Of a stretch of DNA of 19,497 nt, positions 13,738 to 19,497 are shown in pieces. This DNA comes from a virus. Taxonomy: Duplodnaviria > Heunggongvirae > Uroviricota > Caudoviricetes. The notes beneath the pieces are model-generated. The model ran no database searches, was not told where the DNA came from, and saw nothing but the letters and a program-made list of their open reading frames with translations. Both the position numbers and the translations under genes were made by a program. The stretch is from the IMG/VR virus record IMGVR_UViG_2600254985_000001. One strand, given 5' to 3'. Position 1 is the stretch's first letter, and each line of letters begins with the position of its first letter.

Positions 13738-14940
13738 TTATGCTACTGTAATTACTGCACCAGCGTTATAAGTTTCAACATGACCGCTTGTTAGTGTTTC
13801 TACCAAAATCATGTTGCTGTTAGTTTTCCATTCAAAGGCATCAACTTTTGTAAGGTCTTGCATGTCAATGTGATACTTTTGGTCTACCAATACAGTAGGT
13901 TTGAGTGCTTTTGAACCTGTATAGACAATAATTTCATCTACTCCAACTTCAGAGGCAATTTCAGCGTCATCATTTTTAATACGAACGTGAGCATTTGCAG
14001 TTGCTTGACGTAACTCATCTAACAAGGCTTTACGGTCTTCTGCTTTAACAATCAAATAACGACGTCCAGCAGTAGGGCGAACAAAGTCAACCGCTTCTTC
14101 AATAGCGTCAGCAAATGGAGTTTTGCCAGCTGATTTGGCTTTTGTAGTAATCTTTTTGATTTTTTTGACGTCTGCTTCTTTTTCAATTGATTTAAAACCG
14201 TTTGTTCCGTCACCCTCAATAAGCGCAAGGTCAACAATTTTATTAACAATAGCTTGTGTAAGTTCCGCTACAATCAAGTTGTAAAGTTCAGAATATGACA
14301 TTTGAAGTCGTTTAACACGTTCAGCAAGTGATTGCAATTTATAAACCATTACAGGTTCAAGAGTATCAATAGTGAGAGCTGCAGCCTGTTCTACTTTTTG
14401 TTGTCCGTCTTTGTGGAGATTTGCTTCATTAGCTGAATCAAATGAGCGTGATACGAGCAAAGCGCCGACATTTGTAACACGGAATACTTTGAACACTGGG
14501 TTAGTATTTAACAAAACTGTGTTGATTGAATCAACCAATTTACGTGGAAGCTCAAAAGTTTTATCTGTGATAGTTACACCATTTTCAGCAAGTTTTGCGC
14601 TCCAAGCGTTTTTAATTTCTGATTTTCCAGAGTTCTTTTTCAATACATCAAAAAATTCTGTTACAGCGTTTTGTGATTCAATAAAGTTTGTCATTTTATC
14701 TTTTCCTTTTGGTTTTTCTTCCTGTGCGTTAAGTTCATTCTCAATTTTGATAATTTCAATTGAATTTTCTGAAAGTGTTTTTTCCAATTCTTGTACTTTT
14801 GGCAAGTCTTCAATTGCATTTTTTACTTCAAAGCCACTAATTTGAGATTTTAAAGATACGTTATTTTCTTTAAGTTCTGCCAAGCGGTTCTGTTTTTCGA
14901 TTAAATCAGGTTTATTCATATTTCTTTTTAATATCCTCAA
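13738..14940 (-). CDS. major capsid protein (HK97-like, with N-terminal scaffolding/delta domain)
   Basis: 400-aa ORF following the protease gene. The N-terminal approximately 100 residues are coiled-coil-like (…RLAELKENNVSLKSQISGFEVKNAIEDLPKVQELEKTLSEN…), as in delta-domain capsid proteins. Canonical portal-protease-capsid order. Confidence 0.8.
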   Translation of the reverse strand: MRILKRNMNKPDLIEKQNRLAELKENNVSLKSQISGFEVKNAIEDLPKVQELEKTLSENSIEIIKIENELNAQEEKPKGKDKMTNFIESQNAVTEFFDVLKKNSGKSEIKNAWSAKLAENGVTITDKTFELPRKLVDSINTVLLNTNPVFKVFRVTNVGALLVSRSFDSANEANLHKDGQQKVEQAAALTIDTLEPVMVYKLQSLAERVKRLQMSYSELYNLIVAELTQAIVNKIVDLALIEGDGTNGFKSIEKEADVKKIKKITTKAKSAGKTPFADAIEEAVDFVRPTAGRRYLIVKAEDRKALLDELRQATANAHVRIKNDDAEIASEVGVDEIIVYTGSKALKPTVLVDQKYHIDMQDLTKVDAFEWKTNSNMILVETLTSGHVETYNAGAVITVA

Positions 14941-15448
14941 TTTCTTTCAAAGCGTTACGGCTTTCAATAATTTTGTTACGTTCTTCTGTGAGTTCTTCGC
15001 CCAATGCATTTTGAATAAACTTTGCGTTAGGGTCAGCTGGTACTGAAACAAGAGAAATCTCTTTAAACTGTGCTTTATTTACAACTAGAGCATCATTTTC
15101 ATTAAACTCATAATCTGTAATGTAATAGGCAATTGATAGTGAATCAAACGCTCCATTTTCCACAGCTTTGTTAATGTTTGGTGCATTGTCGTAAAGCGTA
15201 AAGTCAGTCAGGTATTTATTAGAAGCTAAGTCATAATAAACTTTCGCGTCCCCAATTACTTCACTAGATCCAGCTCCGTGTTCATATAGCAATGGATATC
15301 GTTCTCTAGCAAACTCAATGCAGTTAGGGGTCAAGATAATACCGTTACGATTCTCTACGCCAACTTCTGAACCAATGCCTTGGAACGACTTAGAACCGTC
15401 CTCGTTTTCAGTTACTTTAATTTCAGCACTATTGGTTATTAGTTTCAT
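14912..15448 (-). CDS. prohead maturation protease (HK97 family) or scaffold-like protein
   Basis: 178-aa ORF between the portal and capsid genes. Overlaps both neighbours. Assignment is mainly by synteny. Confidence 0.55.
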   Translation of the reverse strand: MKLITNSAEIKVTENEDGSKSFQGIGSEVGVENRNGIILTPNCIEFARERYPLLYEHGAGSSEVIGDAKVYYDLASNKYLTDFTLYDNAPNINKAVENGAFDSLSIAYYITDYEFNENDALVVNKAQFKEISLVSVPADPNAKFIQNALGEELTEERNKIIESRNALKEIEDIKKKYE

Positions 15449-16565
15449 CTGTGCTTGTTACGTCCTTTCTATTGCCTTGTAAATCACTTAGGTTTTTAAC
15501 AGCAACTGCGTTAAGGTTTGTGACATAAATATCTCCGCCCTCGATTGGTTGCTCGCCCATTTTAACAAGAAGTTGATTCTGTGTAAAAATAGGAGCGTTG
15601 ATATTTTCGTGATACAAGTCAATTAATTCTTTCAAAGTTGCAAACTTGAATAGCTGGTTATCTACGATTATGCGTTCATAATATAAATTATCCTTAACTA
15701 CTCGTCTGCGGTTTGTTGAAATCAGTTTATAAGTCAGTTCCTTTTCAAGTTGAATCAGTAAAGGAATGATAGTAGAGTTATAAAAATAAATTTGTTGTTC
15801 TTGCGTAGCAGTACCAAGCAAAATATTTTCATTCATAAAGTAGCCTGTCAAAAGTTCCGATTTAATAAGGTCAATTTCATCTTTGTTTAAAACGGAATAA
15901 TCTTTTTTAAGTTCTACAATTTCCGTCTTGTTATCAACTGGTGTCAAACCATTGTAACTCGAACCCTCTTGCATGTTCTTTATTGTTGTTAAGGCTTTTT
16001 CTCGATACTCTTGCGTATTATCAATATCAAGAAAGGCATTAATTTTCAACAAGCCACGCAATTTACCTTGTTCCAGCTTAGTTTGAATACTAGCTAGAGC
16101 ATTATCTAAAATACTTGTATCCTCATTGATATAAAAAGGACTGATAAGCCTTACTAATTCTTCAGGTTTATATTCTTTTTTATCGTTAGCAAATAGTAGG
16201 TCTAATAGATCTCCTGTTTCACTATCAAATATAGGGTACAGGTCAACATAGCGCGTGCATAGCAACTTTTTAATTACTTTCTGCCAAAACTCCATGCTAT
16301 TGTGTTCGCCCTTAGAACTCCAGTTTAGAACCTCGTCTAAGTCAGAACCTGCCATACTAATCAAAGTATCAGAACCAACATCAGACTTTTTATATTTAAC
16401 ATGATTAAATTCTACTTTTGTTATTTCATTAGCGATTTTATTATGAATGTTAGTCACAAAGGCACTTGTATATTCTACCGCTTCGTTTTGCCACGCTGTA
16501 ACTCTTTGAGTATCATTGTTTAGCTTTCCACGTGAAAATGATACCACTTTTCCGAATAAGTTCAA
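15429..16565 (-). CDS. portal protein
   Basis: 378-aa ORF between the terminase/HNH genes and the protease gene. Assigned by synteny and size. Confidence 0.7.
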   Translation of the reverse strand: MNLFGKVVSFSRGKLNNDTQRVTAWQNEAVEYTSAFVTNIHNKIANEITKVEFNHVKYKKSDVGSDTLISMAGSDLDEVLNWSSKGEHNSMEFWQKVIKKLLCTRYVDLYPIFDSETGDLLDLLFANDKKEYKPEELVRLISPFYINEDTSILDNALASIQTKLEQGKLRGLLKINAFLDIDNTQEYREKALTTIKNMQEGSSYNGLTPVDNKTEIVELKKDYSVLNKDEIDLIKSELLTGYFMNENILLGTATQEQQIYFYNSTIIPLLIQLEKELTYKLISTNRRRVVKDNLYYERIIVDNQLFKFATLKELIDLYHENINAPIFTQNQLLVKMGEQPIEGGDIYVTNLNAVAVKNLSDLQGNRKDVTSTDETNNQ

Positions 16566-16577
16566 TTTTTCCCCTTT

Positions 16578-16862
16578 CTACCATAAACTCACACCTTTCC
16601 CACGTTTATACTCGCTTGTCTTCTTGTTATGGCAAGACTTACAAAGGAGTTGTAGGTTATCAGGGTTCAGCGCTATTTTCCAATCATCAAGATTTTCCCA
16701 AGTTAGTTCTATAATATGGTCTACTTCGTATTTTTTAGCACCGAATGCGCCACATCTTACGCAAGTCATCTTATCACGTTGTCTTACATAATCACGGACA
16801 GCCAACCATTCTTTTTTATTATACCAACCACTTTCTCGAACTGTGTCAACATTATACTTCAT
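16578..16862 (-). CDS. HNH homing-type endonuclease (terminase-associated)
   Basis: 94-aa ORF with paired Cys and an H-N-H core ([48 protein letters not shown]). Overlaps the terL 3' end by about 11 nt. Confidence 0.85.
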
Positions 16863-18474
16863 CTGACACCGCCATTTCTAAAGCCATTGTCAAAGCAACA
16901 GTAGGGTCAATTTTATCTTTTTCAAGTTTTTTAGTATACATATAGTCCCCATTTTGTCCGATTTTAACAGCAGTATTATTTAAAGCCCACTGCATGACTT
17001 TTTGGTTATGGATAAGTTTATTTTCCGCTAACTTAGATTTTAATAGCTTGATATAGTCACTCATTGAGAAACCTTGTCGAATTGCTCTTTGGTTGTCTCC
17101 ATCTTTGTCAAAGAAATAACGCTCAATCAGCCCTTTTAAAATTTCATAGCGAGCTGGGTCGTATCCGACTTTTCTAAGTCTGCACCCTGTTTTGGTTCTA
17201 AAGTCATTAATATGCGGTATTAAGTCGTTCACATTGATGTATTCCGTATCAAGTAAGATTAGTTCGCCTCTGTCAACGAATTCAGTCCATAACTCTTGTT
17301 GTTCTGTGTCCAGTTGCTCATATTGAGACCGTACAGAGAAAGTTAGCGTATGGCTGTAAGTTTTACCCTCTAACTCACAAACGAACGATACAGCGGTTAA
17401 ATCGCCAATTAAGGATAGGTCAATTCCGACATAAGTTCTATTTTTATTAAATACAGATAAATTAAAGTCTGTTAGTTTAGTGTCTTGCGGAGTGAAGTAG
17501 TAAGCTGTATCCTGCATAGGTAAGCCCATATTAAACGCTAAGAACTTATTCTGTAACGCTGGGTCTCCTTGCGCAAGCTCGTACTCCTCAATAACTCCTG
17601 ACCACTTAGGAACATTGCCAATAAGTGGTAAAGCCATAGTCCAATTCTTTTTATCTTTGACCTGCTCATGATTTTCTAGCATGTAAAGCAAGCCGAATGA
17701 CCTATCATTGTAAAATTCTTCTTCTGATTTGAATCGTTCAACAAGTTTATCATAAAGTCCGTCGCGTTTAAGTCCGCCAGAAGTGATGTAAATACTTTGC
17801 CAGTTATCTTGTTTTTGACGTGAACCTTTATTAACTGACTCTGTTATATCCTCGCCATAGGTATGGACTTCATCAAATATATTAAGGGAACTGTTACCAC
17901 CTTGCGCTCGTAAAGTATCATTTGTTTGCTTTTTAAAAGTGGTTTTGAAAGACGTAAATTCTAGCCCTTGTTTTGTACTCTTGAAAATCTTGTTTTCATT
18001 GTACACTCTTAATGTATCACTTGCTTCCGTTTGATTCCTAACTTGGTCAAATACGTGTCTAGCCTGTGTATTATCGTATGCAATAACTAGACTTTCTCCG
18101 CCATATTGTCCGCCTAAAATCATCCAGTTAAGCACGCGCGTAGCCATTAAACTAGACTTACCTGATCCACGGCCTAAATTAAGAAAAATCTCATTAATTA
18201 GGTTGACTTGAACACCTTTTTCATCAACCATATCATAGCCTAACATTAACTCATACCACCATTTTTGTGTTGGAAGTAGCTCAATTTTCATCAGGTTACC
18301 AGTAGTCAGGTAGAAGTTGTCTTCTATCCATTCAATAGCTTGCGTAACACGGTCATAGCGATAAATATATTTGTTATGAATACGTATTTGCTTCTGAATA
18401 GTCTTGCGAATGTACTTATTAATAATAATGCCGTTTTCTTTGTTGTATTCCAACATTTTATTTAAATAATACAT
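16852..18474 (-). CDS. terL: terminase large subunit
   Basis: 540-aa ORF with a Walker A-like motif (LGRGSGKSS, around residue 100) and acidic residues in the C-terminal nuclease region. Lies downstream of terS. Confidence 0.9.
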
Positions 18475-18485
18475 TCATTCCCTTT

Positions 18486-18716
18486 CTATTCAAATACTGA
18501 TTGCAAATATTCATCTGAATATGGACACCAACCTTCGTCATCAGTCATTTCTTTTTTAAGTTGTTTCCAGTTTGAAAACTGACCAATAATAGAATCGTTG
18601 TCTCCACACGTCTCACAATAATCTTCAACTTCTTCTAATTCTTTTTCTGAAGTATTTTCTGACATCAGATAAAGTCCTCCGCCCAAATGGTCTTCAACTA
18701 CCCAATATTTTTTCAT
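18486..18716 (-). CDS. small acidic Cys-containing hypothetical protein between terS and terL (76 aa)
   Basis: ORF with an ATGA overlap with the terS stop. Contains CETCGD and WCPY, a possible small zinc-ribbon-like fold. No functional assignment. Confidence 0.5.
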   Translation of the reverse strand: MKKYWVVEDHLGGGLYLMSENTSEKELEEVEDYCETCGDNDSIIGQFSNWKQLKKEMTDDEGWCPYSDEYLQSVFE

Positions 18717-19237
18717 TCAAACCCCTCTGGGACTTTGATTTCTGGCGTTTTATACTTACTTAGCTTATAGTCGTCAAGTTCTTCAATTTTAGCTTTAAGG
18801 TCATGAGCACTTGATTCTTCCTGTTGCAATCTCCGCCATTCAGTAGGGTTATAAAGTTCAGGGTTTCCAGCCTTAGCAACCATCATTGCTACCAAGCTAT
18901 CTTTATCAAGTTCTTTCTCTTTAACCTTTACTTTTTCAACGTTTCCGTCAGCGTCATATATTGTTTCTGTTTCTTTTAGCGTTCTGACTGTCAGTTTGCT
19001 CGCTAAGGCACTTTCGGCTAGTTCTAATAGATTTCCCCTAGCAATGCTTTTAGCTTCGTCATACGCCTTTATATTGTCATCTCGCCACTTTCTAAAAGTT
19101 TTAGCCGAACAATGCAAACTGGTGTAGATTTCTCTGTCATTACAGCCTGATTCAATTTTATCAATGATTTGGCTAAAAAGCGGTTCTTCATACATCTTAG
19201 GTAAAATTGTGGGTCTGCCACCTTTTTGTGTTTGCAT
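18713..19237 (-). CDS. terS: terminase small subunit
   Basis: 174-aa ORF, first gene of the late operon, preceded by an AAGGA ribosome-binding site. N-terminal helix-turn-helix-like region and acidic C-terminus. Sits immediately downstream of a repeat-containing non-coding region. Confidence 0.7.
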   Translation of the reverse strand: MQTQKGGRPTILPKMYEEPLFSQIIDKIESGCNDREIYTSLHCSAKTFRKWRDDNIKAYDEAKSIARGNLLELAESALASKLTVRTLKETETIYDADGNVEKVKVKEKELDKDSLVAMMVAKAGNPELYNPTEWRRLQQEESSAHDLKAKIEELDDYKLSKYKTPEIKVPEGFE

Positions 19238-19394: not shown

Positions 19395-19451
19395 GAGATT
19401 TAGCGAGATTTAGCGAGATTTAGCGAGATTTAGCAAGATTTAGCGAGATTT
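19395..19451. repeat. tandem 10-bp direct repeat array (GAGATTTAGC, five units plus a partial unit; the fifth unit has G->A at its first base)
   Basis: Directly visible: gagatttagc gagatttagc gagatttagc gagatttagc aagatttagc gagattt, in the non-coding region upstream of terS. Confidence 0.9.
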
Positions 19452-19464
19452 TTCTTTTTGATTT

Positions 19465-19497
19465 TTTGGGGGATTCGCAGCCGGGAGTCCTTTGTGC
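19465..19497. other. GC-rich segment at the window edge, candidate cos or packaging-site region
   Basis: GGGGGATTCGCAGCCGGGAGTCCTTTGTGC is strongly GC-rich against an approximately 35% GC background. It contains an imperfect inverted repeat (GGATTC ... GAGTCC) and sits just beyond the repeat array upstream of terS. Confidence 0.3.

Follow-up and report, generated by a model that had tools for sequence, protein, structure and literature searches.

The HNH endonuclease gene adjoining terL in a Lactococcus Skunavirus is hrdP, a conserved gene almost certainly involved in DNA packaging

An HNH endonuclease gene that adjoins the large terminase gene of a tailed phage raises the question of whether its product takes part in DNA packaging or whether the gene represents a selfish homing element. 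The question is posed here by an open reading frame (ORF) of 94 amino acids (aa), located at positions 16578..16862 (minus strand) of a viral DNA stretch of 19,497 nucleotides (nt) (IMG/VR record IMGVR_UViG_2600254985_000001), the whole of which is referred to as the window. A preliminary description, made from the sequence alone, had presented this ORF as an HNH gene embedded at the 3' end of terL, the product of which was probably a packaging component rather than a selfish homing endonuclease. The gene is identified here as the Skunavirus gene hrdP, and its product is almost certainly a packaging factor.

Identity of the HNH gene adjoining terL

The window is derived from the cos-proximal end of a Lactococcus Skunavirus genome, the first 19.5 kb of which it represents in reverse complement, from the cohesive-end (cos) site through to the lysis module. 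The locus under study is collinear with that of Skunavirus sk1 and 99.9% identical to that of Lactococcus phage JeB4, and approximately 375 other Lactococcus Skunavirus (936-group) genomes exhibit 90-99% identity to the window region.

The ORF runs from an ATG start codon to a TAG stop codon, and its deduced product is a GVE2-like HNH endonuclease, in which a ββα-metal nuclease domain is combined with a four-cysteine (Cys4) zinc site. Residues 34-84 matched the full Pfam HNH profile (PF01844; E=2.4e-12, 47.3 bits compared with a cut-off of 21.4), confirming the 94 aa HNH ORF that had been proposed for this location, and PHROG HNH families were also matched (best E=3.2e-24). The HNH motif was found to be complete, consisting of C34-x2-C37, D48-H49, N66/N69 and C74-x2-C77-H78. 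The HNH_3 family, which had been put forward as a check in the preliminary description, was not matched, the product falling within the classic HNH family only; neither HNH_3, NUMOD nor any other DNA-binding module was detected in the 94 aa protein by the Pfam search. A search of NCBIfam returned only generic, sub-threshold HNH-domain matches (IscB and ZorE), with no model dedicated to this protein.

Sequence comparison revealed that the product is identical to HrdP of sk1 (ORF3, sk1p03) at 92 of 94 positions (98%; E=2e-71), both proteins being 94 aa in length and differing by two conservative substitutions (I51V and K62N). The sk1 gene, the bIL170 gene encoding Gpl3 and the window gene are the same gene, and the sk1 and window versions have in common their length, their location between terL and the portal gene, an 11 nt overlap with terL, and all catalytic and zinc-binding residues. 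On every testable feature the window gene belongs to the Skunavirus HrdP group, i.e. the GVE2-like HNH endonucleases encoded at site H2. The gene has thus already been described, being sk1 hrdP in another isolate, and the finding, although correct, does not alter current understanding.

The overlap with terL that had been noted earlier is real, with the end of terL and the start of hrdP sharing 11 nt (ATGAAGTATAA; 16852..16862, minus strand). However, the gene is not embedded in terL, but is a separate gene downstream of it with an ordinary overlap of start and stop codons. The same 11 nt overlap was observed in sk1, in JeB4 and in three divergent skuna-like contigs (L006, L008 and L009). Because the start of hrdP overlaps the stop of terL in this manner, HrdP is probably co-produced with TerL, the arrangement probably permitting translational coupling.

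The published work on this gene is extensive. Yu et al. (2025; PMC12724721) classified 268 HNH genes from 89 skunaviruses and found a single GVE2-like HNH gene per genome, always positioned between terL and the portal gene (site H2) and named HrdP, this being the sole HNH class fixed at one site. Conversely, I-HmuI-like and PacI-like HNH genes were reported to range from zero to seven per genome across ten sites, to be frequently truncated and to be associated with marker exclusion, so that skunaviruses hold between one and eight HNH genes, most of which are I-HmuI-like and mobile (PMC12724721). In a subsequent study (Yu et al. 2026; PMC12967558), hrdP was reported to be universal among 228 skunaviruses, and deletion of the sk1 gene using clustered regularly interspaced short palindromic repeats (CRISPR) was obtainable only with complementation in trans, the deletion phage exhibiting an efficiency of plaquing (EOP) below 1e-4 that was rescued in trans. 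DNA replication and the synthesis of capsid and tail proteins proceeded normally in the absence of hrdP, whereas intact virions were absent, and HrdP was described as essential for the formation of DNA-filled, infective virions in sk1 (PMC12967558). The purified protein was shown to be an active, metal-dependent nuclease without sequence specificity (PMC12967558). A packaging role for bIL170 Gpl3 had been suggested as early as 2002, as cited by the same authors. Given the 98% identity between the two proteins, HrdP would be expected to be essential also in the phage represented by the window.

Distribution, selection and vertical descent of hrdP

The distribution of hrdP was examined in GenBank phage records by megablast, through which hrdP was identified in 375 records and terL in 379. 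Every record spanning the site (375 of 375) was found to contain hrdP, and the four records positive for terL and negative for the HNH gene (AF090369, AF090370, ON840053 and ON840054) are partial entries of 1.6-2.8 kb that end at or before hrdP. One of these, AF090369 (phage P008), ends 45 nt into hrdP, and the complete P008 genome contains the gene. Two others, ON840053.1 and ON840054.1, are recorded as 'Caudoviricetes sp.' from Rattus norvegicus, with 88% and 70% identity to the window terL, respectively, and represent skuna-like phage DNA in a rodent sample, the origin of which is possibly dietary.

Spacing at the locus was assessed in IMG/VR by scanning for a terL-end anchor and a portal-start anchor separated by N{260,285}. 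In total, 81 contigs were matched, in each of which exactly 274 nt separate the terL stop codon from the ribosome-binding site of the portal gene, and no IMG/VR contig was found to represent an empty site, i.e. one in which the two anchors are 0-30 nt apart. Deletions of intermediate size were covered by translating the sequence following every terL-end anchor in IMG/VR (95 occurrences), and an intact 94 aa ORF was present in 91 of these. The four exceptions comprise a contig bearing inverted copies close to its end, a case in which the locus itself ends, a tandem duplication in phage 8V08, and phage CHPC964. In 8V08 (IMGVR_UViG_2974542048; 32312 bp), a 99 nt tandem duplication at positions 2162-2360 extends from ~61 nt before the end of terL to ~49 nt into hrdP; terL remains intact, and downstream of it come a 23 aa stub and then a full-length hrdP preceded by its own upstream context. 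Neither the sporadic distribution nor the close relatives lacking hrdP that would have been indicative of a mobile gene were found in GenBank or IMG/VR.

The only anomaly is the hrdP gene of CHPC964 (NC_049487.1; 2394-2530), in which a 127 nt segment takes the place of codons ~7-28, corresponding to the N-terminal third. This segment matches part of the neck-passage-structure gene of phage GP13 with 100% identity and splits hrdP into a 27 aa ORF and a 63 aa ORF, the latter containing the full HNH and zinc core. The sequence could stem from chimeric assembly, or else represent a rare natural truncation at the N-terminus. It was considered as a natural knockout and set aside as such, since the ORF for the HNH core is intact and the sequence is possibly chimeric, and it speaks neither for nor against essentiality.

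Beyond the phages of Lactococcus lactis, a homologue of hrdP was identified in five Lactococcus garvieae phages at 60-80% nucleotide identity, and among the matches listed that of PLgW-1 (NC_055050.1; 2445-2623) occupies the same genome position. A tblastn search found no GenBank phage carrying a divergent metagenomic variant of the protein (P0003). Several database entries deviate in their sequence or labelling. The partial record of phage phi41/bIL41 (L35061.1; 3261-3856), annotated as 'structural protein orfL3', has a terL-hrdP stretch of 596 nt compared with 583 nt in the query, which probably reflects old sequencing or annotation errors. Furthermore, two clusters of partial HNH proteins with 98-99% identity to HrdP (P0002 and P0015) were deposited in NCBI under the names of Staphylococcus aureus (19 member sequences) and Streptococcus pneumoniae, and are probably the result of skunavirus DNA contaminating bacterial assemblies.

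To place these observations in terms of selection, ratios of non-synonymous to synonymous substitution rates (dN/dS) relative to sk1 were calculated, amounting to 0.042 for hrdP, 0.050 for terL and 0.121 for the portal gene. hrdP is under purifying selection equal to that on terL. In a large protein database, homologues of 94 aa were recovered down to 60% identity, and four divergent skuna-like contigs (L006-L009) were shown to retain the order terL-HNH-portal-protease. The identities of these four contigs to the window are 57-68% for the HNH gene (codon alignment), tracking those of terL (62-70%) and the portal gene (56-59%). In L007, the HNH gene is overlapped by 1 nt, the upstream gene being cut by the end of the contig. 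The conserved order and position in divergent skuna-like phages indicate that the arrangement predates the L. lactis skunaviruses.

Residue conservation was assessed across 14 homologues with 56-97% identity to the window protein. Residues C34, C37, D48, H49, N66, N69, C77 and H78 were found to be invariant, and C74 nearly so. An N-terminal block, consisting of R9, S11, G12, Y14, W19, R23, D24, R27, R29 and D30, was likewise invariant. Based on its distribution, low dN/dS, co-divergence with terL and the portal gene, and invariant residues, hrdP is best read as a core gene that is inherited vertically under functional constraint, not as a mobile element. The expectation of a packaging component rather than a selfish homing endonuclease is thus borne out by the identity to sk1 HrdP, the universal presence of the gene and the purifying selection acting on it.

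Relatives of HrdP and its proposed role in packaging

Among solved structures, the only significant relative of HrdP by sequence is the HNH endonuclease of Geobacillus virus E2 (GVE2; 5h0m), matched over residues 11-88 by phmmer (E=7.6e-10). An AlphaFold2 model of HrdP, with a predicted local distance difference test (pLDDT) score of 85.9, was used in a Foldseek search, in which 5h0m was the top match and the only one below E=1e-3 (E=4.7e-5, template modelling (TM) score 0.67, 36% identity). The GVE2 protein (PDB 5H0M/5H0O) is terminase-associated and has the HNH core of HrdP together with the same conserved N-terminal helix and CxxC...CxxCH zinc site; it differs in its length of 130 aa, which includes an N-terminal extension, and in that its gene is found at the start of the genome, where it overlaps a small-terminase annotation.

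More distant homologues, with 30-47% identity, were identified by tblastn in several hundred phages of Staphylococcus, Paenibacillus, Streptococcus, Bacillus and other hosts. The HNH protein of phiSLT/phi12 (orf104b) is 34% identical to HrdP (E=4e-9) with the same motifs, and is encoded by a cos phage with a homologous TerL partner and a portal-protease-capsid head module; the window TerL is 25% identical to that of phiSLT over its full length (E=2e-33), and a search of TerL against solved structures by sequence gave no match at E<=0.01. Unlike the window, phiSLT has the order HNH-cos-terS-terL-portal, in which the annotated cos and terS come immediately after the HNH gene. Cleavage of cos has been reported to depend on this HNH protein in addition to TerS and TerL (Quiles-Puchalt 2014, as cited in PMC12967558). 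The homologue in Streptococcus Javan347 is encoded just before terS-terL-portal, and the linear genome of Bacillus phage Gamma ends with its homologue.

Kala et al. in 2014 are said to have described HNH proteins as components of the packaging machine, with HK97 gp74 as the archetype. Like HrdP, gp74 is an HNH protein encoded by a cos phage whose TerL, portal and protease are of the HK97 type, and its W...R, CxxC, DH, N and final H residues align with those of HrdP. However, its second CxxC pair is degenerate and its gene is the last before cos and terS. HK97 gp74 was not retained as a close relative, its similarity to HrdP being remote, and the informative comparisons are those with the proteins of GVE2, phiSLT and Gamma. 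In function and evolution, hrdP groups with the terminase-associated HNH genes of HK97-like cos phages, from which it differs in gene position.

The other element of the packaging system is located at the end of the window. The minus strand opens with a G followed by CACAAAGGACT (19486..19496, minus strand, read from 19496 to 19486), which is identical to the cos sequence listed for 936-group phages (PMC4759559, Table 1; PMC8050962). The cos packaging strategy that had been proposed from the position of the HNH gene is thereby upheld, and packaging of this phage from cos sites is supported by the match to the published sequence.

The mechanism favoured here, with a modest degree of confidence, is that HrdP nicks cos as a partner of the terminase. 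In its favour, HrdP and TerL are both homologous to their phiSLT counterparts, the fold is of the GVE2 type, the genome end carries cos, and skunaviruses possess a separate core RuvC-like resolvase. HrdP, lacking sequence specificity of its own, would be recruited to concatemeric DNA by the TerS/TerL complex near cos, where it would introduce one of the two staggered nicks that generate the 11 nt CACAAAGGACT cohesive ends, the other being made by the TerL nuclease. This is the same model as that proposed for HK97 gp74 and the phiSLT/phi12 HNH protein, and an earlier proposal that such phage HNH proteins nick one cos strand and TerL the other is attributed to Kala 2014 and Quiles-Puchalt 2014, as cited in PMC12967558. 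HrdP is a minimal nuclease in which H49 acts as the general base and N69 in positioning, with D48 and H78 binding the catalytic metal; the Cys4 zinc site (C34, C37, C74 and C77) stabilizes the protein, which also possesses a conserved N-terminal helix (W19, R23, D24, R27, R29 and D30). The phenotype of the sk1 deletion suggests that HrdP matters most for the completion of packaging, i.e. the terminal cos cut, and less for its initiation.

Several observations weigh against cos nicking by HrdP. Purified HrdP degraded DNA with or without cos, thus exhibiting no specificity, and did not co-elute with His-tagged TerL, whereas TerL co-eluted with His-tagged TerS; furthermore, AlphaFold3 yielded no confident complex of TerL and HrdP (PMC12967558). 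The proheads of the hrdP deletion phage were expanded, in which they resembled the proheads of a head-tail-connector mutant and differed from those formed when terS was deleted (PMC12967558), which suggests that packaging starts without HrdP and fits poorly with a requirement for an initiating cos cut. In the literature, no joint cos-cleavage assay with TerS, TerL and HrdP has been reported for any skunavirus. In addition, hrdP is not found at the canonical HNH-cos-terS position but between terL and the portal gene, HK97 gp74 is a weak match (hhalign E=0.04), and the HrdP sequence gave a borderline, partial match to the Pfam family of the lambda NinG protein (25.9 bits compared with a cut-off of 25.4).

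Part of this evidence could instead be explained if HrdP were a packaging-coupled, structure-specific nuclease similar to T4 endonuclease VII (gp49), trimming branches, Holliday junctions or Y-structures as DNA is threaded into the prohead, perhaps while docked at the portal, and not acting at cos. Such debranching was raised as an open alternative by Yu et al. (PMC12967558), who note that T4 requires gp49 to fill its heads and that this protein binds to the portal. The expanded proheads and the absence of filled heads in the sk1 deletion would fit packaging that had started and then stalled, and the sequence-non-specific nuclease activity and lack of co-elution with TerL (PMC12967558) point in the same direction, as does the location of hrdP next to the portal gene. 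T4 endonuclease VII and lambda NinG belong to the same ββα-metal nuclease superfamily as HrdP, and the former appears in the Foldseek list; it does so, however, at ranks 44 and 48 with marginal values (E 0.7-0.8, TM 0.43-0.45), the GVE2 HNH protein being the sole significant match, and the NinG match lies at the threshold and covers profile positions 68-141 of 193, i.e. the shared HNH core only. All detectable homologues outside the Skunavirus-like phages are, moreover, terminase-associated HNH proteins encoded beside cos or terS, and a RuvC-like Holliday junction endonuclease is already among the core proteins of skunaviruses (PMC4759559). A resolving nuclease of this type is regarded as rather unlikely, if a serious candidate.

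A function of HrdP in packaging that does not involve nuclease activity, for example as a zinc-finger DNA-binding protein or an assembly cofactor of the terminase-portal machine, is improbable. It would be in keeping with the fact that no specific HrdP cleavage product has ever been seen (PMC12967558), and with an N-terminal helix (the six residues named above) as invariant as the active site. Against it stand the metal-dependent nuclease activity of the purified protein (PMC12967558) and the prior proposal, cited above, that phage HNH proteins nick cos alongside TerL; the invariance of D48, H49, N69 and H78 over 56-97% identity likewise argues for retained catalysis. A free-standing homing endonuclease inserted between terL and the portal gene is effectively refuted. 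HNH domains are typical of phage homing endonucleases, most skunavirus HNH genes are I-HmuI-like and mobile (PMC12724721), and several GenBank records label hrdP as 'homing endonuclease'. The I-HmuI-like and PacI-like homing HNH proteins indeed share the catalytic motif and the same genomes with HrdP, which differs from them in being single-copy, confined to one site and essential. An inserted homing gene is contradicted by the presence of hrdP in all spanning GenBank records, the lack of an empty site and the invariant spacing in IMG/VR, by a dN/dS of 0.04 and co-divergence with terL and the portal gene down to ~57% identity, by a length of only 94 aa without an additional DNA-binding module, by the lethality of the deletion in sk1 (PMC12967558), and by the published classification, in which HrdP is the only HNH class fixed at one site (PMC12724721). 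Cos nicking in partnership with the terminase is, with the reservations given above, the mechanism retained here.

The packaging locus and the significance of HrdP

In the window, the genes are arranged in the order terS-orf-terL-hrdP-portal, with hrdP between terL and the portal gene, as in JeB4, where an HNH endonuclease is annotated between these two genes. The late operon comprises terS-(orf)-terL-hrdP-portal-protease-capsid. The large terminase gene terL (16852..18474, minus strand) encodes a 540 aa protein with ATPase and RNase H-like nuclease domains (Pfam TerL_nuclease, E=9.7e-36; TerL_ATPase, PF03354, E=3e-16; PHROG 9, E=2e-125). The portal gene (15429..16565, minus strand; 378 aa) starts with a TTG codon at 16565, 12 nt past the hrdP stop codon and preceded by AAAGGGG. 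Its product was assigned on the basis of PHROG 12 (E=1.5e-52) and the portal annotation in JeB4, with a match to Pfam Phage_portal (PF04860; E=1.3e-8) below the gathering score and a weak match to the NCBIfam model TIGR01537 (portal_HK97). The portal gene is followed by that of an HK97-family prohead protease (14912..15448, minus strand; Pfam Peptidase_S78, E=6.4e-7), which is supported by the annotations of JeB4 and sk1. The head module is HK97-like according to Pfam, the HNH gene adjoining an HK97-type TerL, a portal and an S78 protease. Several of the divergent skuna-like phages (from among PLgW-1 and L006-L009) were observed to carry an additional gene with a Big_2 immunoglobulin-like domain after the capsid gene.

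Upstream of terL, the small terminase gene terS (18713..19237, minus strand) encodes a member of the lactococcal family (Pfam Phage_term_sma, E=4.1e-121; PHROG 1437). Between terS and terL lies an ORF of 76 aa (18486-18716, minus strand) with a CxxC...C motif, belonging to PHROG 4501, a family of unknown function. In sk1, terS and terL abut without this ORF, a difference that has no bearing on hrdP; variable ORFs between terS and terL are found in ~66% of 936-group phages (Murphy et al. 2016). Between the cos end and terS, Tandem Repeats Finder identified a 10 bp tandem repeat of 5.7 copies (19395..19451; 95% matches, score 107), with the unit GAGATTTAGC on the plus strand, which represents a candidate TerS-binding array. 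The corresponding array upstream of terS in sk1 is more degenerate and AATCT-rich, compared with that of the window.

A broader, tentative proposition, which we consider doubtful, is that HrdP is a portal-proximal nuclease acting during or at the end of translocation, through branch clearing or the terminal cut only, and is not the cos-nicking partner of TerL. If this were true, terminase-associated HNH proteins would split into two mechanistic types that could be read from gene position, i.e. terL-HNH-portal in skunaviruses and HNH-cos-terS in HK97, phiSLT and Gamma. The residual interest of the locus lies in this choice between cos nicking with the terminase and the resolution of DNA structures during packaging.

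For the annotation of these phages, the 'homing endonuclease' label attached to hrdP in many database records is contradicted by the distribution, selection and genetic data, and HrdP can serve as a reliable indicator of a cos-type HK97-like packaging module. No other phages are encountered as often in dairy fermentations as skunaviruses, and HrdP, being tiny, universal, essential and nearly invariant, represents a plausible anti-phage target.

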